A stretch of DNA of 24,000 nucleotides from Aeromonas lusitana (GCF_002812985.1 NZ_PGCP01000020.1:48634-72633), one strand, 5' to 3'; positions 1-14,420 are shown, numbered from the stretch's first letter. The notes: a model not told the origin generated them from the sequence alone. Numbers and translations: made by a program.

Positions 1-2208
1 CCAGGCCCAGCGGTTGAAGGTGTGCACCATGGCGCCGGTGATAAGGCCATTGGCGTGGGCGTGGGCCGCCAGCAGGGAGAGCGGCAGTGGCGGCATGCCA
101 CGGGTCGTCAGCCCAGCCGGGGTCCAGCTCGCCTCGCTGGAGGGGCCCAGATCCAGGTTCGCCTGACCGACGAAGTATTGCTTGCGCCAGATAGCGGTCG
201 CCGCCGGCCAGAGCGTCTGCTCAAACAGGAGGCGGGCCGCCGCTGTGGTGGCATGGCTCTGGAAGTAGGAAGAGATGGAGGCGGAGGAGGCCTGCGGAAT
301 GGCCAGGGTCCAGCGCGGGTTCTTCTGCATCTCGTCCTGGCGTTCCTGGGAGATGGTGTAGGGGTTGTCCGTCTCCTCCAGCTTGAAGCTTTCCCAGAGC
401 GCGATTTCGGCGAGATCTATGGTGTCGGCCGGTTGGCCAAAGTAGCGGCTGACGATCTCGGCCTGGGAGGTCTGGATCCCGGTGCCCATCTCCATGCCGC
501 TGATCTTCAGCAGTATCTCCCCCTTGCTGGTCAGCTCGACGCAGGCCGAGGGTGCCACGGCCCCTGTGCCGTAGTCCTTGGTGGTGATGCTGAACCCTGT
601 GCCGTACAGGCGATCCGGGTGCTGGGCCTCGTAAGCCTGCTTCCGGCTCTCACGCTGGGCCCAGGCCTCGTGCTGCCCGGCCATCGCCAGGATCTCGGGG
701 TAACGGTTGTTGCCCTCTGGGATGGCGCCCTGAGTATTGGGTTGGCCTGGTTTGATCAGGTTGCGGCGCCTCAGCTCCAGGGGATCTATTTTGAGCAGCG
801 CGGCGGCCTCGTTGATCATCATCTCCATGGCCGCCATGGTCTGCAGGGAGCCATAGCCTCGCATCGAGCCGCAGTCCGGGTTCTCGGATGGCAGGGCGAT
901 CGCCGTGATGTCGTTCTTGGGCAGGTAGTAGACGCCCTGAATGGCGCTGGCTCCCACGCTGGTCACTGAGCCGGTGAAGTTCAAACGACCGCCGCCGTCC
1001 ACCGTCATGGAGGAGATGAGGGCGCGGAACTGGCCGCTCTGCTTGTCGAGCACCAGCTTGTTTTTCATGTTGAACGGATGACGCTTGAGGCCACCCTGGA
1101 ACTGCTCGAAACGGTCGTTGGCCAGGCGAACCGGGCCGGTGCCATAGATGGCGGCGAGCAGGCCGTAGAAGGGGAATATGGTGTGATCCTTGGCCCCGAA
1201 ACCACCGCCGATGAAGGGGGAGTGCACCACCAGCTTGTCGACCTTGCCCGCCAGCGGCCCCTTGGCCAGCATCTCAGCGGCTTCGTAGTAGAAATCGTGA
1301 GGGGACTGGGTGCTCACCACCAGGTGCATGGTGCGCGCCTTGGCGTCGAACCAGCCGTTGAAGTTTTCCGGCTCCATCATCATGGGCTCGATGAACTGGG
1401 TCTGATAGGTGCGATCCAGCACCAGGGCGTCGTCGGCCTTGAGCTCCTCGTGCACCAGTTCGGCCTGATACATGCCCTGCTCGCCCGCATTGCCATCGGC
1501 CTTGGGGGTCGGCCATACCGGCTGGTGATTGACGATGGCCGGGAAGAAGAGGCCATTTTTCAAGGCGCTGTATTGATCGGCCATGCCGAGCTTGCCCTCG
1601 ATCCGGATGATGCGCCAGCAGGCCCAGGGATCGCGGGAGGCAGCGACCAGCGGCGTCACGTCGCCGTAGCGCACCACCTTGTCATTGAATTGCAGGGTCT
1701 GCTTGGCCCGATTGAAGGTGGCAAAGTCCGGGAAGAGGAGCATGGCGGCGGCCTGGCCCAGATAGTCCGGGGTGGCGCCTTCGCTCACCAGCATGTTGAT
1801 GCCGTAGAAGGCGGGCAGCTCGACGCCATCGCGCAGCAGATCGGCTGCGGTGATCACCCGGCCGGGCTGGGCATTGGCGGGCAGCATGGAGAGATCCAGC
1901 CCCAGATAGCGGCGATCCGCCTTGTCGAGCCGGATCAGCAGCGCATGTTGCTGCTGGGATGGCCAGCCAGCCAGATCCTGCGCGCGATAGTCCCGGCTGT
2001 AGATCTTCTGACCGGTTACCTTGGCCAGGCCGTCGCTGCGAAACTTGACCTTGCCCCCCTGTTTCCACTGGCCGAGCAAGGCGGGATCGAAGACCTCGTC
2101 CTCCATGCCGGACAGGGAGAGGTTCGCGAGGAGGGGAGCGCTGTAGACGGCGATGCCGGCGATGACGCACTGCTTGATGAATTCACGTCTTGATAAGGGA
2201 TAGGACAT
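1..2208 (-). CDS. Aldehyde oxidase/xanthine dehydrogenase-family molybdopterin-binding subunit with Tat signal (IorB/PaoC-like); partial, C-terminus lies beyond position 1
   Basis: Absent from the ORF track because it runs off the left edge. Manual minus-strand translation from ATG 2208-2206 stays open for all 736 codons to position 1. It begins MSYPLSRREFIKQCVIAGIAVYSAPLLA (twin-arginine SRREFIK signal). Later segments include VVHSPFIGGGFGAKD, GSMRGYGSLQTMAAMEMMINEAA and GMEMGTGIQTSQ, which are typical of Mo-binding subunits of this family. Confidence 0.85.
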   Translation of the reverse strand, partial: MSYPLSRREFIKQCVIAGIAVYSAPLLANLSLSGMEDEVFDPALLGQWKQGGKVKFRSDGLAKVTGQKIYSRDYRAQDLAGWPSQQQHALLIRLDKADRRYLGLDLSMLPANAQPGRVITAADLLRDGVELPAFYGINMLVSEGATPDYLGQAAAMLLFPDFATFNRAKQTLQFNDKVVRYGDVTPLVAASRDPWACWRIIRIEGKLGMADQYSALKNGLFFPAIVNHQPVWPTPKADGNAGEQGMYQAELVHEELKADDALVLDRTYQTQFIEPMMMEPENFNGWFDAKARTMHLVVSTQSPHDFYYEAAEMLAKGPLAGKVDKLVVHSPFIGGGFGAKDHTIFPFYGLLAAIYGTGPVRLANDRFEQFQGGLKRHPFNMKNKLVLDKQSGQFRALISSMTVDGGGRLNFTGSVTSVGASAIQGVYYLPKNDITAIALPSENPDCGSMRGYGSLQTMAAMEMMINEAAALLKIDPLELRRRNLIKPGQPNTQGAIPEGNNRYPEILAMAGQHEAWAQRESRKQAYEAQHPDRLYGTGFSITTKDYGTGAVAPSACVELTSKGEILLKISGMEMGTGIQTSQAEIVSRYFGQPADTIDLAEIALWESFKLEETDNPYTISQERQDEMQKNPRWTLAIPQASSASISSYFQSHATTAAARLLFEQTLWPAATAIWRKQYFVGQANLDLGPSSEASWTPAGLTTRGMPPLPLSLLAAHAHANGLITGAMVHTFNRWAW

Positions 2209-2746
2209 GGCTTCGCTACCTGTGTGAGGATGAGGCGAGTGGTTCGGGGGAAAGAGAGGGGGGACAGGGGCTGTCGACCATCTTCCCTGAAGTCGCAGTA
2301 GAAAGTGACAAGGTTGTAAATAGGATACTAGGATGATGCGGTTTGGAAAATGCCTGGTTTTTGTTTATGCCAACTTGATCCGGTTTTGTGGTGTGATGCG
2401 CTGGTTGTTGACGTTTGGTTTCATATTATTGAAATTTGATAGTGAAATGGCATGGATAAACAGCGTTTTATTTTTACCCATCCGCCGCCTTTCATGTCTA
2501 GGCTGAGCGCCCCCTGTGCTCTTCCGGCTCCGCAAATCCCTCGCTTGCGCCCCGATGGCGGCTAAAGGAAGGGAGTCTGGACGCGTGCACCTGGCACCGC
2601 GCTGCTGAGAATGCGGCCGACACGGCACCACACGGGGCGCGGTTGGCAAATTCCTGTTGAGCCTCATGGGTGAATAGTGGATCATTGTCGGTTTCTAAGC
2701 GGGGGCGCGCGGTTGCCCCATGAGCTGAGACTTTCGAGGTGAATTC

Positions 2747-4408
2747 ATGAGCGAGGCGAGCAGCCCAACCAACTTTATCCGTCAGATCATCGATGAAGAT
2801 CTGGCCAGCGGTAAGCACAAGAGCGTGCATACCCGTTTTCCACCCGAGCCGAACGGTTATCTGCACATCGGCCATGCCAAGTCCATCTGCTTGAACTTCG
2901 GCATCGCCCGCGATTATCAGGGCCAGTGCAACCTGCGCTTCGATGACACCAACCCGGCGAAGGAAGACATCGAGTTCGTGGAGTCCATCAAGCAGGACGT
3001 GCAGTGGCTCGGCTTCCAGTGGAGCGGTGAGATCTGCTACTCCTCCGACTATTTCGACAAGCTGCATGGCTACGCCATCGAGCTCATCGAGAAGGGTCTG
3101 GCCTATGTGGACGAGCTCTCCCCCGAGCAGATGCGCGAGTACCGTGGCACCCTGACCGAAGCCGGCAAGAACAGCCCGTTCCGCGATCGTAGCGTCGAAG
3201 AGAACCTGGCCCTGTTCGCCAAGATGAAGAACGGCGAGATGGCCGAGGGCAGCGCCTGCCTGCGCGCCAAGATCGACATGGCATCTCCCTTCATGGTGAT
3301 GCGCGATCCCGTCATCTATCGCATCAAGTTTGCCCACCACCACCAGACAGGTGACAAGTGGTGCATCTACCCCATGTATGACTTCACCCACTGCATCTCG
3401 GACGCCCTGGAGGGGATCACCCACTCCCTGTGCACCCTGGAGTTCCAGGACAACCGCCGCCTGTATGACTGGGTGCTGGACAACATCAGCATCGACTGCC
3501 ACCCCCGTCAGTACGAGTTCTCCCGTCTGAACCTCGAATACACCGTCATGTCCAAGCGCAAGCTGAACCTGCTGGTGACCGAGGGGCACGTGAGCGGTTG
3601 GGATGATCCGCGCATGCTGACCGTCTCTGGTCTGCGCCGCCGTGGCTATACCCCGGCCTCCATCCGCGAGTTCTGCAAGCGCATCGGCGTGACCAAGCAG
3701 GACAACATCGTCGAGATGAGCATGCTGGAAGCCTGCATCCGCGAGGATCTCAACGAGAACGCCCCCCGTGCCATGGCCGTGCTGCACCCGGTGAAAGTGG
3801 TCATCGAGAACTTGGCGGCCGACGAGGTGCTGAGCGCGCCGGCGCATCCGAACAACGCCGAGATGGGCACCCGTGAGCTGACGTTCAGCCGCGAGATCTT
3901 CATCGACGAGGCGGACTTCAAGGAAGAGGCGAACAAGCAGTTCAAGCGTCTGGTGCTGGGCAAGGAAGTGCGTCTGCGCAACGCCTATGTCATCAAGGCC
4001 GAGCGGGTCGAGAAGGATGCGGACGGCAAGGTGACTTGCATCTACTGCTCCTACGATCCCGAGACCCTGGGCAAGGATCCGGCCGATGGTCGCAAGGTGA
4101 AAGGCGTGATCCACTGGGTCAGTGCCACTCACTCCCTGCCGGCGGAGATCCGCCTCTACGACCGCCTGTTCAAGATGCCAAACCCGGCGGCCGAAGACGA
4201 CTTCGAGGCGGCCCTGAACCCAGAGTCCCTGGTGGTCATCGCCGGTGCCCGGGTCGAAGCCTCCTTGAAAGATGCCAAGCCGGAGTTTGCTTACCAGTTC
4301 GAGCGTGAAGGTTACTTCTGCGCCGACAACAAGCTCTCCAGCCCGGAGCATCTGGTGTTCAACCGCACCGTCGCCCTGCGCGACGTCTGGGGCAAGGCCG
4401 AAGGCTGA
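2747..4408 (+). CDS. glnS: Glutaminyl-tRNA synthetase
   Basis: 553-aa ORF with class I aaRS HIGH motif ([12 protein letters not shown]) and KMSKS-type motif (VMSKRK). Full-length resemblance to GlnRS. GAGGTG Shine-Dalgarno lies 5 nt upstream of the ATG. Confidence 0.97.
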
Positions 4409-5723: not shown

Positions 5724-6248
5724 TCAGGCCAGTTCGGCCAGATTCAGCTCGTCGTGCAGCTGCTTGCACCAGCCCTTGACGCGCTCGGCGGTCAGCTCGG
5801 GTTGGCGATCCTCATCGATACCGAGACCGACGAAGTGCTTGTCATCCACCAGCGCCTTGGAGGCTTCATACTCATAGCCGGCGGTCGGCCAGTGGCCGAC
5901 GATGATGGCGCCCTTGGCTTCGACGATGTCGCGCAGGGTACCCATGGCGTCGAGGAAGTACTCGGAATAGTCTTCCTGATCGCCGCAGCCGAAGATGGCC
6001 ACCAGCTTGTTGGTGAAGTCGATCTCTTCCAACTCGGGGAAGAAGTCATCCCAGTCAGCTTGAGACTCACCGTAGTACCAAGTCGGGATGCCAAACATCA
6101 GCAGATCGAAATTGGCGATGTCAGCCTTGCTGCTCTTGGCAATGTCATGGACTTCAATGAGTTGCTTGCCCAGTTCTTTCTGGATCATCTTGGCGACAGC
6201 TTCGGTATTACCGGTATCGCTGCCGAAAAACAGACCTACACTAGCCAT
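5724..6248 (-). CDS. fldA: Flavodoxin I
   Basis: 174-aa ORF, MASVGLFFGSDTGNTEAVAKMI... (FMN phosphate-binding loop). Long-chain flavodoxin length, and syntenic with fur and ybfE. Confidence 0.97.
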   Translation of the reverse strand: MASVGLFFGSDTGNTEAVAKMIQKELGKQLIEVHDIAKSSKADIANFDLLMFGIPTWYYGESQADWDDFFPELEEIDFTNKLVAIFGCGDQEDYSEYFLDAMGTLRDIVEAKGAIIVGHWPTAGYEYEASKALVDDKHFVGLGIDEDRQPELTAERVKGWCKQLHDELNLAELA

Positions 6249-6287
6249 AGTGTTTAGTTACCCGTATTTGGTGTTAATGCTAACGGT

Positions 6288-6584
6288 TCAGATTGCGATG
6301 CCTGCTGCAAAAGCAGACTCAATCTGTTGCTTCAGGATAGATTGGATCAGCTCGGCTCGGCTGACGTTCTGTTGCAGCGCAAGTTGGTTCAGGCGCTCCA
6401 GCAATTCGGCCTCCACCTTTAACTCAACCCGTTTCAGACCATTCTCCCGATCGCGCTTGAGCTGGTTGCGCTTGTTGATCTTGAGCTGGGTCTCACGGGG
6501 GAGTGGATTGGTCTTTGGCCTGCCGGGGCGCTTCTCAGTTGCGAACAGATCCAGTGTTGTTCGATCAGTTTGCTGTTTGGCCAT
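6288..6584 (-). CDS. ybfE: YbfE-like small ribbon-helix-helix protein (LexA-regulated protein in E. coli)
   Basis: 98-aa ORF, MAKQQTDRTTLDLFATEKRPGRPKTNPLPRETQLKINKRNQLKRDR..., closely parallels E. coli YbfE. It occupies the same position next to fldA. Confidence 0.85.
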   Translation of the reverse strand: MAKQQTDRTTLDLFATEKRPGRPKTNPLPRETQLKINKRNQLKRDRENGLKRVELKVEAELLERLNQLALQQNVSRAELIQSILKQQIESAFAAGIAI

Positions 6585-6604
6585 ACATCACAGATGAAAA
6601 GTAG

Positions 6605-6826
6605 TTAGCCGATCCCTGAGCCTTCCCAGCCCATTTCGATCAGCCCCTTGGCGACAAAACCCGCGCAACCCAGAAACAGAACCAGCCAGACGATGAGACG
6701 CCCGAAACGGGGCACGTTGCCGCGTTTGAGCACGTCTTGAATGGCCAGACCAATCAGCAGGAAGATGGCCACGAAGAACAGCTTCAGGCCCAGACTCTCG
6801 ATCAGATCGATATGTTCACTCAGCAT
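6605..6826 (-). CDS. Small membrane protein, DUF2788-like
   Basis: 73-aa ORF with two hydrophobic helices (LKLFFVAIFLLIGLAI and LIVWLVLFLGCAGFVA). The family assignment is from memory. Confidence 0.7.
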   Translation of the reverse strand: MLSEHIDLIESLGLKLFFVAIFLLIGLAIQDVLKRGNVPRFGRLIVWLVLFLGCAGFVAKGLIEMGWEGSGIG

Positions 6827-6881
6827 GGATTGCGCACACTCCTTATGACGGGCGCACTATATCACAAAGGATTTGAAACTG

Positions 6882-7664
6882 TTAACCGCCTGTCGACAGG
6901 AAATCCACAACCAATTTGTTGAACAACACCGGCTTTTCGGCGTGCAGCCAGTGGCCGGTTCCGGCGATGACCCGGGCCTTGGCCGCCGGGAATTGTGCCA
7001 TCACAGTCTCGGTATATTCGGGCAGCACATAGTCCGAATCCCCCCCCTTGATGAACAGGGTCGGCCCCTCGAAGCGGGTCTGGTCGTCGGGCCAACCCAT
7101 GATGTTGGCGTAGTTGTGCTCGAGCGCCGGTACGTTGAAGCGCCAGCCCCAACCGGAGTCGCTTTTGGCGAAGGATTTGAGCAGGAACTGGCGCACTCCG
7201 GGGATCTCGATGTGCTGGGCCAGTATGGCTTCGGCCTCGCTGCGGCTCTGGGGCGGGTTGGCGAGGGTGGCGTTGAGACCGGCGAACACATTCTTGTGAC
7301 GGGCGTGGGGATAGGCGACTGGCGCTATGTCGGCCACCACCAGCTTGTTGATGCGCGCCGGTGCCTGCTTGGCGAGTTGCATGGCAACCTTGCCCCCCAT
7401 GGAGTGACCCACGATCGCCACCTGCTCGAGGCTCAGGTGATCGAGCAGGGCGAGCACGTCGGCGGCCTGCTGGGGGTAGCTCATCTCATCGCTATGGAAG
7501 GAGGCGCCGTGGTTGCGCAGATCGATGCTGATGACACGAAACTGCTCGCTCAAGGGGCGCGCCAGCAGGCCCAGGTTGTCCAGGCTGCCGAACAGGCCGT
7601 GGATCAGGACGACGGCCGGGCCCTCTCCCTGCTCCTTGAAGTTCAAATACTGATTGTGTTGCAA
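6882..7664 (-). CDS. ybfF: Alpha/beta-hydrolase esterase YbfF
   Basis: 260-aa ORF with VVLIHGLFGSLDNLG and the nucleophile elbow GHSMGG. C-terminal GHWLHAEKP. Syntenic with seqA as in E. coli. Confidence 0.9.
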   Translation of the reverse strand: MQHNQYLNFKEQGEGPAVVLIHGLFGSLDNLGLLARPLSEQFRVISIDLRNHGASFHSDEMSYPQQAADVLALLDHLSLEQVAIVGHSMGGKVAMQLAKQAPARINKLVVADIAPVAYPHARHKNVFAGLNATLANPPQSRSEAEAILAQHIEIPGVRQFLLKSFAKSDSGWGWRFNVPALEHNYANIMGWPDDQTRFEGPTLFIKGGDSDYVLPEYTETVMAQFPAAKARVIAGTGHWLHAEKPVLFNKLVVDFLSTGG

Positions 7665-12913: not shown

Positions 12914-13519
12914 CTAGTCCCGCAAGGTGTGGTAACCGCTCCAGAGCCGGGTGAGTGTGGTGATGAAGCAGAGCAGGGCGAAGCCGTAGGCAAGCCACCC
13001 GAAGGCCGCGGGCCAGAGGCACATCAGCACGAACAGGGTGATGGTCTCGCTCCCCTCGGTGAGGCCGCCGAGATAGTAGAGGGACTTGTGGTGATAGACG
13101 GGGTTCTCGATCCCCCGTTTGCCCGCCATGATGGCGAAGGCCAGGAAACTCGAGCCCGTGCCCATGAAGGCGAACAGCAGGGTGGCGGCGGGCAGTGCGT
13201 TGGCGGGATCAGAGAGGGCAAAGCCTAGCACCACGGCGGCGTAGAAGATGAAGTCCAGCGTGATGTCGAGGAAGCCGCCGCAGTCTGTGATGCCGTTCTG
13301 GCGCGCCACGGCGCCGTCCAGCCCATCCAGCAGCCGATTGCAAAGAATGGCAATCAGGGCCCAGCCGTGCAGCCCCAGCGCCAGTAGCGGCAGGGCCAGC
13401 ATGCCGATGGCAAAGCCGACGAGGCTTATCTGGTTGGCGCTGACCCCGGCTCGGCACAAGGGAGTGGCCATGAGTGCCAGGGGGCGACGAAGAAGGGGAA
13501 TGATGCGGCTATCGAACAA
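12914..13519 (-). CDS. CDP-alcohol phosphatidyltransferase-family membrane protein (YnjF-like)
   Basis: 201-aa ORF with the family signature D-G-x2-A-R-x8-G-x3-D-x3-D, seen as DGLDGAVARQNGITDCGGFLDITLD. Several TM helices. TTG start at 13519 is preceded by GAGGAG, with an 8-nt gap after it. Confidence 0.87.
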   Translation of the reverse strand: MFDSRIIPLLRRPLALMATPLCRAGVSANQISLVGFAIGMLALPLLALGLHGWALIAILCNRLLDGLDGAVARQNGITDCGGFLDITLDFIFYAAVVLGFALSDPANALPAATLLFAFMGTGSSFLAFAIMAGKRGIENPVYHHKSLYYLGGLTEGSETITLFVLMCLWPAAFGWLAYGFALLCFITTLTRLWSGYHTLRD

Positions 13520-13521
13520 GG

Positions 13522-13608
13522 TCAGATCTCCTCATGTATGGGGGAAGTGGGGGGCATAAGGTCAAGAATGGCGCCCGGCGCATCCTCCTCATCGTGAGTG
13601 ACCGGCAT
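13522..13608 (-). pseudogene. Duplicated 3' fragment of the ABC ATPase gene (28-codon ORF MPVTHDEEDAPGAILDLMPPTSPIHEEI)
   Basis: Lies in repeat unit 1 and repeats the H-loop block VTHDEEDAPGAIL of the upstream ATPase. Whether it is translated is unknown. Confidence 0.4.
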
Positions 13609-13833
13609 GAGAGGGGATCTGTCATGGCGATCAGTCAAGGCCGAGTTTCTCTTTATCAGAGCAGGGGGTTGTCAGTGTCAGTATGGCGCCCGGTGCATCC
13701 TCTTCATCATGGGTGACCTGCATGAGAAGGGATCTGTCATGGCGATCAGTCAAGGTCGGGTTCCTCTTTATCAGAGCAGGGGGTTGTCAGTGCCAGTATG
13801 GCGCCCGGCGCATCGTCCTCGTCGTGGGTTACC
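13568..13833. repeat. Tandem direct repeat, period 115 bp, 2 full units plus a 36-bp partial third unit
   Basis: Units at 13568-13682 and 13683-13797 are identical at 105 of 115 positions (counted by hand). The third copy (13798-13833) is the genuine 3' end of the ATPase CDS. Confidence 0.92.
13631..13723 (-). pseudogene. Duplicated 3' fragment of the ABC ATPase gene (30-codon ORF MQVTHDEEDAPGAILTLTTPCSDKEKLGLD)
   Basis: Lies in repeat unit 2 and mirrors the real C-terminus ...VTHDEDDAPGAILALTTPCSDKEEPDLD. No obvious Shine-Dalgarno. Confidence 0.4.
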
Positions 13834-14420
13834 AGGATGGCCGGGATCCGGCGCGCGGCGATACGCTCGAACACCAGGGTGCGAAACGCGGCTCGCAGCG
13901 GCTTGTCGAGGCGCGAGAAGGGTTCGTCCAGCAGCAGGGCCCGGGGTTCGGCGAGCAGGGCACGCAGCAAGCTGACGCGTGCCTTCTGACCGCCGGAGAG
14001 CTGGCCGGGCAGCATGTCCGCCTGATCCACAAGCCCCACCTCGCCGAGCGCCGCCAGCGCGGCGGCCCGCCGGACGGCCATCCCCTTGAGATAAGCCGGC
14101 ATGCCAAACATCAGGTTCTCCGCCACCGTCAGGTGAGCGAACAGCAGATCCTCCTGAAACAACATGCCGATCTGCCTCTGCTGGGGCGGCAGAGTGGTGA
14201 GTGGCCGCTCACCGAGCCAGAGCTCGCCATCCAGCCTGAAAGGGCCCCTCCCTGTTAAAGAGCCGGGCAAGACCCCCGCCAGCGCCGCCAGCAAGGAGCT
14301 CTTGCCGCAGCCGCTCGGCCCCATCAGGGTCAGCACCTCGCCGGGGGCGACCGCCAGCGGCGGCAGATGGAGCAGGGGCTTGCCGTGCAGGCTCAGGGTG
14401 AGGGCGCCGGTTTTCAACAT
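13746..14420 (-). CDS. ABC transporter ATP-binding protein (short, YnjD/ThiQ-like)
   Basis: Walker A GPSGCGKSS, signature LSGGQKARVSL, Walker B LLLDEPFS, H-loop VTHD. The start ATG 14420 overlaps the permease stop (ATGTTGA coupling). The longer track ORF (to 14690) is an upstream read-through artefact. Confidence 0.92.
   Translation of the reverse strand: MLKTGALTLSLHGKPLLHLPPLAVAPGEVLTLMGPSGCGKSSLLAALAGVLPGSLTGRGPFRLDGELWLGERPLTTLPPQQRQIGMLFQEDLLFAHLTVAENLMFGMPAYLKGMAVRRAAALAALGEVGLVDQADMLPGQLSGGQKARVSLLRALLAEPRALLLDEPFSRLDKPLRAAFRTLVFERIAARRIPAILVTHDEDDAPGAILALTTPCSDKEEPDLD

Follow-up and report, generated by a model that had tools for sequence, protein, structure and literature searches.

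A tandem array of the overlapped ynjD/ynjF gene junction in Aeromonas lusitana, probably made and reshaped by recombination

We analyzed a 24,000-nucleotide (nt) stretch of the Aeromonas lusitana genome (GCF_002812985.1, NZ_PGCP01000020.1:48634-72633; hereafter the window), in which a ynjD-like gene, encoding the ATPase of an ABC transporter, and the downstream ynjF-like gene, encoding a CDP-alcohol phosphatidyltransferase, are separated by tandem repeats of 115 bp. The repeat unit is the entire overlapped ynjD/ynjF junction, i.e., an H-loop block (VTHDE(D/E)DAPGAIL), a 15-codon tail that carries a Shine-Dalgarno (SD) sequence, a TTG and a TGA, and a shortened remnant of ynjF. Overall, comparison with related genomes indicates, with a probability of approx. 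60%, that these repeats represent a heritable tandem array of the junction that was made and reshaped by recombination and that is probably near-neutral.

Structure of the array and of its repeat unit

Tandem Repeats Finder reported a repeat with a period of 115 (2.3 copies, 89% matches, score 441) at positions 13568-13833, and an independent repeat search recovered two copies of 115 nt at 90% as well as a 61-nt core that occurs three times with spacings of 115 and 115. Both searches bear out the tandem repeat described in a first-pass annotation of the window, including the match between the units at 13568-13682 and 13683-13797 (105/115 identical positions). The array consists of two full 115-bp units and a third copy of a 39-nt block, and the repeat does not continue into the flanks (34-57/115 matches on either side). 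An assembly artefact can be dismissed, as an identical array is present in a second A. lusitana assembly (L130; loci are referred to here by our own handles) and independent assemblies contain diverged versions of it. The copies are arranged head-to-tail and derive from the adjacent local genes, the block and tail from the 3' end of ynjD and the linker from the 5' end of ynjF. The earlier description of the unit as the 3' end of the ATPase gene was thus correct for the block and tail, but the unit comprises the whole ynjD/ynjF junction, including the ynjF remnant. The features of the region are as follows (type-A and type-B refer to two kinds of YnjD C-terminus described below; ORF, open reading frame).

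13746..14420, minus strand: ynjD-like ABC transporter ATPase coding sequence (224 aa), ending in tail 1; ORF, protein WP_100860457.1 of A. lusitana
13794..13832, minus strand: block 1, VTHDEDDAPGAIL, H-loop region, in the ynjD frame
13746..13793, minus strand: tail 1, ALTTPCSDKEEPDLD, followed by TGA (13746-13748), with the SD-like AAAGAGGAA and the TTG of mini-ORF 1 (13753-13751)
13718..13745, minus strand: ynjF' remnant 1, MTDRHDRSLLMQ, decayed relative to native MFDRH(L/I)IPLIRR and absent from the native ynjF of the loci read
13631..13753, minus strand: mini-ORF 1 (40 codons), i.e., ynjF' remnant, block 2 and tail 2; TTG 5 nt before the ynjD stop
13679..13717, minus strand: block 2, VTHDEEDAPGAIL
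13631..13678, minus strand: tail 2, TLTTPCSDKEKLGLD, followed by TGA (13631-13633); carries the TTG of mini-ORF 2 (13638-13636)
13603..13630, minus strand: ynjF' remnant 2
13522..13638, minus strand: mini-ORF 2 (38 codons), i.e., ynjF' remnant, block 3 and native tail 3; stop 2 nt before the ynjF TTG
13564..13602, minus strand: block 3, VTHDEEDAPGAIL, with the 3' end ATT CTT, shared with L004 and L133 (single-copy, type B)
13522..13563, minus strand: tail 3, DLMPPTSPIHEEI, followed by TGA (13522-13524), with the GAGGAG SD for ynjF; native type-B C-terminus
12914..13519, minus strand: ynjF-like CDP-alcohol phosphatidyltransferase, TTG start

The last stop codon (13522-13524), the 2-nt gap and the ynjF TTG at 13519 are all located as the first-pass annotation had placed them. 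YnjD matches PF00005 and is ThiQ-like; homology to the family stops at approx. residues 204-207, inside the block, and the YnjD tails (residues 210-224) are not part of the conserved ABC domain.

Single-copy Aeromonas loci (L001, L002, L004, L008, L011, L133, L135, L137, L138 and L139) show how the junction is normally organized, with the ynjD stop overlapping or abutting the ynjF TTG (cTTGTTTGA). The single-copy junction reads ...GAC CTT GTT TGA TCG CCA CCT GAT CCC..., and its ynjF frame (TTG TTT GAT CGC CAC CTG ATC CCC) encodes MFDRHLIP, while the cassettes read cTTG ACT GAT CGC CAT GAC AGA TCC... and encode MTDRHDRS. Alignment to ynjF 5' ends identified the 28-nt linker of each unit as a degenerate, in-frame copy of the ynjF 5' end; no MTDRHDRS-type sequence was found in native ynjF among the loci read. 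The acidic codons of the tail (KEE, EE) spell the ynjF SD (AAAGAGGA, GAGGAG). Across 13525-13563, 13749-13793 and the single-copy loci, the sole conserved feature of the otherwise hypervariable YnjD tail (acidic EE/ED, then LV and the stop) coincides with the ynjF SD, TTG and overlapping stop. The YnjD tail sequence seems to be shaped by the initiation signals of ynjF rather than by YnjD function.

Each cassette in the window also contains a pair of GATC sites (13602-13630 and 13717-13745), inherited from the ynjF codons GAT-CGC and CTG-ATC; native ynjF 5' ends carry up to three such sites. While the first-pass annotation was correct in assigning paired GATC sites to the units of the window, the pairs are not kept in all cassettes. 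As L082 and the second remnant of L081 no longer have the second site, the GATC pairs do not look like a conserved Dam-regulated element.

With regard to annotation, the ynjF gene of L130 (2450-3007) is called 16 codons short (185 aa as compared to 201 aa for 12914-13519 in the window); evidently the gene caller avoided the TTG start next to the array. Across these genomes, both the C-terminus of YnjD and the start of ynjF are variable or miscalled.

Copy number and allelic footprints in related genomes

Scoring of copy number across relatives, as suggested in the first-pass annotation, found loci with 3, 2 or 1 units, and five distinct array alleles were recovered (from the window and L130, L081, L131, L132, and L082-85). 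These arrays and one single-copy relative are as follows, with tails given in order from ynjD to ynjF.

Window and L130 (A. lusitana): 3 units; tails ALTTPCSDKEEPDLD, TLTTPCSDKEKLGLD and DLMPPTSPIHEEI
L081 (Aeromonas metagenome-assembled genome, 96% YnjD identity): 3 units; tails TLTTPCSDKETPDLD, TLTTPCSDKEELDLD and GLMPPSFFNPEEPHLV; last stop overlaps ynjF, ancestral-like
L131: 2 units; tails TLTTPCSDKEKLDLD and QLHPPVSRHPQESDLV
L132: 2 units, spacing 118 nt; tails TLTTPCSDKEELDLD and DLMPPTSPTHEEI
L082-85 (other lineage, 81% ynjD identity): 2 units, spacing 103 nt; tails TLTTPEGSDLD and NLMPFEEKNLA
L133/134 (same species as L082, 94-99% along ynjD): 1 unit; tail NLMPFEEKNLA

By identity of the flanking genes, the window, L081, L131 and L132 form one clade (90-97%), with L004 as the single-copy sister. 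A strain-private duplication with a fixed copy number, which would have spoken against the first-pass interpretation, was not what we found, as unit numbers of 3, 2 and 1 occur among close relatives. The proposed recombination inside the block is supported by these evolutionary changes in copy number and with a hybrid block in L132, but there was no sign of programmed or high-frequency variation.

The second block of L132 matches block 2 of the window over its 5' part and block 3 of the window at its 3' end (ATT CTT), and the last tail of L132 (DLMPPTSPTHEEI) is close to tail 3 of the window (DLMPPTSPIHEEI). This is the product that would be expected from loss of one unit by a crossover between block 2 and block 3. 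Tail codon 12 provides an additional marker; it is CCC in the first unit and CTC in the second unit of both 3-unit arrays, and two 2-unit arrays carry the second-unit form. In the other lineage, the block of L133 is one synonymous change away from a hybrid of blocks 1 and 2 of L082, which weakly favors an origin of the single-copy L133 locus from an L082-like array by deletion (one change as compared to three otherwise).

The tails of upstream and last units are of two types, and each type is found as a genuine C-terminus in single-copy genes. Upstream-cassette tails (A/TLTTPCSDKE..DLD) are of the type represented by the single-copy C-terminus TLTTPC[ST]DKEE[AP]DLV of L137 and A. encheleia; more generally, type-A tails (TLTTPC..K[ED][ED].DLV) are the genuine C-terminus in A. 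media, A. rivipollensis, A. encheleia, A. salmonicida and L137. Last-unit tails, on the other hand, are of type B ([DGN]LMP...), which is native to the clade of the window and its neighbors and forms the authentic YnjD C-terminus of L004, L133/P0009, A. intestinalis, P0004 and P0013. In L081, the last tail (GLMPPSFFNPEEPHLV) is near the single-copy L004 tail (DLMPPSFFNPEEPHLV), and the last tail of L082 is identical to the single-copy P0009 tail. Among the three alternatives raised by the first-pass annotation (C-terminal switching, translated mini-ORFs and repeated capture of diverged alleles), these foreign-type upstream tails and native-type last tails fit the last one best.

The ynjD gene itself (13746-14420) is a pronounced inter-species mosaic: identity between the window and L082/L133 reaches 97-98% over approx. 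alignment columns 100-200 and is 61-74% in other 100-nt windows, while L082 is 92% identical to L004 over only the first approx. 150 nt of ynjD. Compared to its sister locus L004, the window shows 80% identity in ynjD as compared to 85-94% in ynjC, ynjF and mltB. With regard to a type-A derivation of the window ynjD near its 3' end, sliding-window identities showed strong mosaicism and no clean donor.

The three blocks of the window differ at 9 sites, all of them third codon positions (uniform expectation 5e-5), with 8 synonymous changes and one D/E replacement; our recount agrees with the first-pass annotation on this point, as it does on the replacement-only divergence of tails 1 and 2, where all 4 differing sites are replacements (A/T, E/K, P/L and D/G). 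Among non-first blocks, 12/15 variable sites are third positions. Blocks also resemble different single-copy alleles: block 1 (CAC GAC GAG GAC GAT GCG) matches A. aquatica- and L137-like alleles, block 2 (CAT GAT GAA GAG GAT GCA) resembles L004, and tail type is reflected in the 3' end of the block, as ATT CTT accompanies type-B tails (block 3 of the window, L132, L082, L133 and L004) and ATA CTG, ATC CTG or ATA TTG is found in cassettes and in the single-copy type-A loci L135 and L137. The block differences are best explained as largely allelic differences that accumulated in functional genes and became combined through duplication or capture and through recombination tracts ending in the block. 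Divergence would appear coding-like as every block either stems from a functional allele of ynjD or was replaced through recombination with such an allele. Divergence of repeat copies at third positions only hence need not mean selection on silent copies, as it may be inherited from functional alleles.

Origin of the array and alternative explanations

We hypothesize that the first extra unit arose when short, similar and in-phase stretches of ynjF and ynjD were joined illegitimately. The join would either have duplicated the junction in situ or have captured a foreign type-A 3' end ahead of the native one in a homology-facilitated, illegitimate event. Unequal crossing-over would then have extended two units to three, and crossovers within the 39-bp block would remove units again. 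YnjD would gain a different tail, outside the conserved ABC domain, and translation of ynjF would be kept through the overlap of SD, TTG and stop in every unit, i.e., from ynjD to the 40-codon ORF, to the 38-codon ORF and to ynjF. The block would represent the last homologous stretch before the hypervariable tail, where recombination tracts can end, and the downstream copies would need no selection on a protein. Three alignments of the duplication junction are possible, and the data favor none over the others. One joins CCTGGTGACCC in ynjD and CCTGGCCACCC in ynjF (CCTGG(C/T)CACCC), which are in phase and 130 nt apart in L137, and would give an in-frame junction with a later net change of -15; the L137 tail is nearly the same as the cassette tail. 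The other two are a co-linear alignment with TCACCC microhomology (net -3) and a junction at the 'CTCATG' of native-type ynjF (net -18).

Some observations weigh against this explanation. The cassette tail is like that of L137 and A. encheleia, yet the 'CTCATG' of the remnant matches ynjF of the lusitana/L004/L133 type, and extra steps would be needed in either model, foreign donor or in situ, in its simple form. Statistics based on only five distinct array alleles are thin. Moreover, non-first blocks are coding-like even when strongly diverged (7 of the 10 differences in the last block of L131 are at third positions) and frames are intact, which leaves room for selection on translated mini-ORFs.

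The first-pass annotation had predicted mini-ORFs of 30 and 28 codons, each with its own ATG. These internal-ATG versions exist, but the full ORFs have 40 and 38 codons and start at TTG (13753 and 13638), each 5 nt before the preceding TGA. Every mini-ORF runs from the ynjF remnant through the block, in the ynjD frame, into the next tail, and its stop codon either overlaps the following start or adjoins it. None of the 7 mini-ORFs found in the 5 distinct alleles is disrupted, and each has the TTG 5 nt before the previous stop and a purine-rich SD-like stretch; the two other frames contain several stops. Indels are all multiples of 3 (+3 in the L132 remnant, -3 in block 2 of L082 and -12 in tail 1 of L082), and the remnant differs from native ynjF by a net -15 or -18 with the frame kept. 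As each mini-ORF is intact and has an SD as well as a TTG that overlaps the stop of the preceding ORF, translation of the mini-ORFs is plausible, and this organization suggests that the frames may be held open to hand ribosomes on to ynjF. It is possible, although we propose it only tentatively, that such a relay is under selection, the array being tolerated only while ribosomes pass from ynjD through the 40-codon and 38-codon ORFs to ynjF. The relay would maintain translation of ynjF and prevent polarity caused by Rho over the 230 nt, and the frames rather than the peptides would be maintained; it is compatible with a recombination-derived array, to which it would add a selective constraint. 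The sample is small, however, the GAG deletion sits within GAGGAG, a repeat in which the mechanism alone would yield a length of 3 nt, and ynjF has its own strong GAGGAG SD 8 nt before its TTG, so that coupling may be unneeded. A more elaborate version appears unlikely, i.e., a copy-number-variable relay in which the number of mini-ORFs would set the level of the CDP-alcohol phosphatidyltransferase relative to the transporter, with gain and loss of units tuning the ratio and swapping the ATPase tail, or, as a sub-variant, in which peptides of 38-40 residues representing the H-loop end would act on the transporter.

If the mini-ORFs instead encoded functional micro-proteins that mimic the C-terminus of YnjD, the synonymous-only variation of the blocks would be explained by selection on the peptides, and the predominance of third positions among variable sites of non-first blocks, the presence of SD and TTG and the intact ORFs would be in agreement with this. 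We nevertheless consider it very unlikely. The N-terminal, ynjF-derived half of the mini-ORFs varies almost exclusively by replacement, with remnant codons changing mostly at second positions, the orthologous unit 2 of the window and L081 shows 2 synonymous and 4 replacement differences, and the blocks of last units travel with imported tails. Because of these replacement changes in the remnant and in unit 2, the mini-ORF peptides do not look selected, and the remaining evidence points away from selection. A 40-residue query found no mini-ORF homologue called as a gene in 5.8 billion protein clusters, and neither peptide matched a protein family. A 64-aa ORF was considered as a mini-ORF homologue and rejected, as it represents an A. 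media-type ynjD 3' end on a contig with 0.78x coverage and not a cassette. In this contig (ENA ERZ9422170, coverage 0.78; L140, 611-805), the ORF joins an unrelated N-terminus to the A. media-type ynjD 3' end LLVTHDEEDAPGAILTLTTPCLTKEDSDLV beside a gcvH-like gene and is probably the product of a chimeric or frameshifted low-coverage contig.

The first-pass annotation had also proposed a programmed, phase-variable C-terminus, with silent downstream tails becoming fused to YnjD by recombination or slippage in the block. The geometry would allow this, as loss of 115 bp would bring tail 2, and loss of 230 bp tail 3, into frame with YnjD, and both the variation in copy number among relatives and the hybrid block are in line with it. 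The homology available is limited to 39 bp with 4-6 mismatches, however, with a longest perfect run of 17 nt between blocks 1 and 3, and tails 1 and 2 differ by 4 residues only and would offer little diversity, in a region outside the ABC domain that varies freely between species. The array is identical in two A. lusitana consensus assemblies, no recombinase gene was found among the neighboring genes (transporter, lipid, murein and MarR genes), and the repeat search found no inverted repeats at the array. Programmed switching therefore received no support and is as improbable as the micro-proteins.

A mobile or dispersed repeat, similar to miniature inverted-repeat transposable elements (MITE) or repetitive extragenic palindromic (REP) sequences, and an assembly artefact have a negligible probability, as nothing beyond the repetition itself speaks for either. 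Every part of the unit derives from local ynjD or ynjF sequence, inverted repeats are lacking, the window contains no further copies of the remnant, and diverged versions of the array in independent assemblies speak against an artefact. A search for a dispersed element with the exact junction CTTGACTGATCNNCATGNCA in 241 million metagenome records yielded 44 loci, none of them beside a THD/DAPG block, which we regard as chance matches. A structured RNA element or attenuator was rejected as well; no Rfam family reached threshold (the sole match was snoR9, with 16 bits as compared to a gathering score of 90), the region showed no advantage in folding over shuffled controls (z = -0.47), and no promoter or terminator was predicted on the coding strand.

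Elsewhere in the window, G+C content dips to 0.56 at 2001-3000 and 0.53 at 6001-7000, as compared to approx. 0.63-0.69 over most of the remaining window.

Comparison with known systems

Overlapping genes that are translationally coupled by termination and reinitiation share with this locus the single-copy overlap TTGTTTGA and the placement of the SD inside the upstream gene, which the cassettes reproduce (cTTGACTGA); here, in contrast, coupling would proceed via two putative non-functional relay ORFs. The locus offers a natural system in which to examine how duplication of a junction is tolerated by genes that overlap and are translationally coupled. Silent-cassette systems such as pilE/pilS and the hsdS shufflons likewise have alternative 3' cassettes out of frame downstream of an expressed gene, with which they have a recombination block in common. 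Unlike these systems, the array has no dedicated recombination machinery or sequence, its product is not a surface or specificity protein, and its repertoire is minimal.

Short tandem duplications, which arise by microhomology or slipped misalignment and unequal crossing-over, resemble the array in their head-to-tail units, candidate microhomology, copy numbers of 1, 2 and 3 and the hybrid unit. The copies described here are, however, not recent identical ones; they diverge by 9-10% and represent distinct allele types, with type-A or type-B tails, so that recombination between alleles must have contributed as well.

C-terminal displacement reportedly generates orphan arrays at rhs, cdiA and type VI secretion system (T6SS) effector loci (Jackson et al. 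2009; Koskiniemi et al. 2014; Kirchberger et al. 2017). As in the array studied here, a constant gene body and a short conserved block are followed by a variable 3' end; the newer 3' end stands in front, while the displaced older end remains downstream, keeps a piece of the block and can be re-fused by recombination in the block. For orphan arrays at T6SS and rhs loci, illegitimate recombination that is facilitated by homology has been proposed as the mechanism (Kirchberger et al. 2017, PMC5361080), and a similar origin is among those proposed here. Compared to rhs, cdiA and T6SS loci, the A. lusitana array is tiny, with 115-bp units and tails of 13-16 residues that have no family match; it includes neither a toxin domain nor an immunity gene, and a ynjF remnant follows each tail. 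The gene affected encodes an ABC ATPase of the housekeeping type, the units that have been displaced represent copies of a junction, and there is no evident benefit.

An architecture with a constant body, a conserved block and stacked variable 3' ends, which is usually taken as a sign of polymorphic toxins or antigenic variation, can arise at an ordinary operon junction with no sign of benefit, here probably by illegitimate duplication or capture and allelic recombination. Among known kinds, the ynjD/ynjF array comes closest to a combination of C-terminal displacement and tandem duplication of a junction, of which it can be regarded as a miniature, non-toxin variant.

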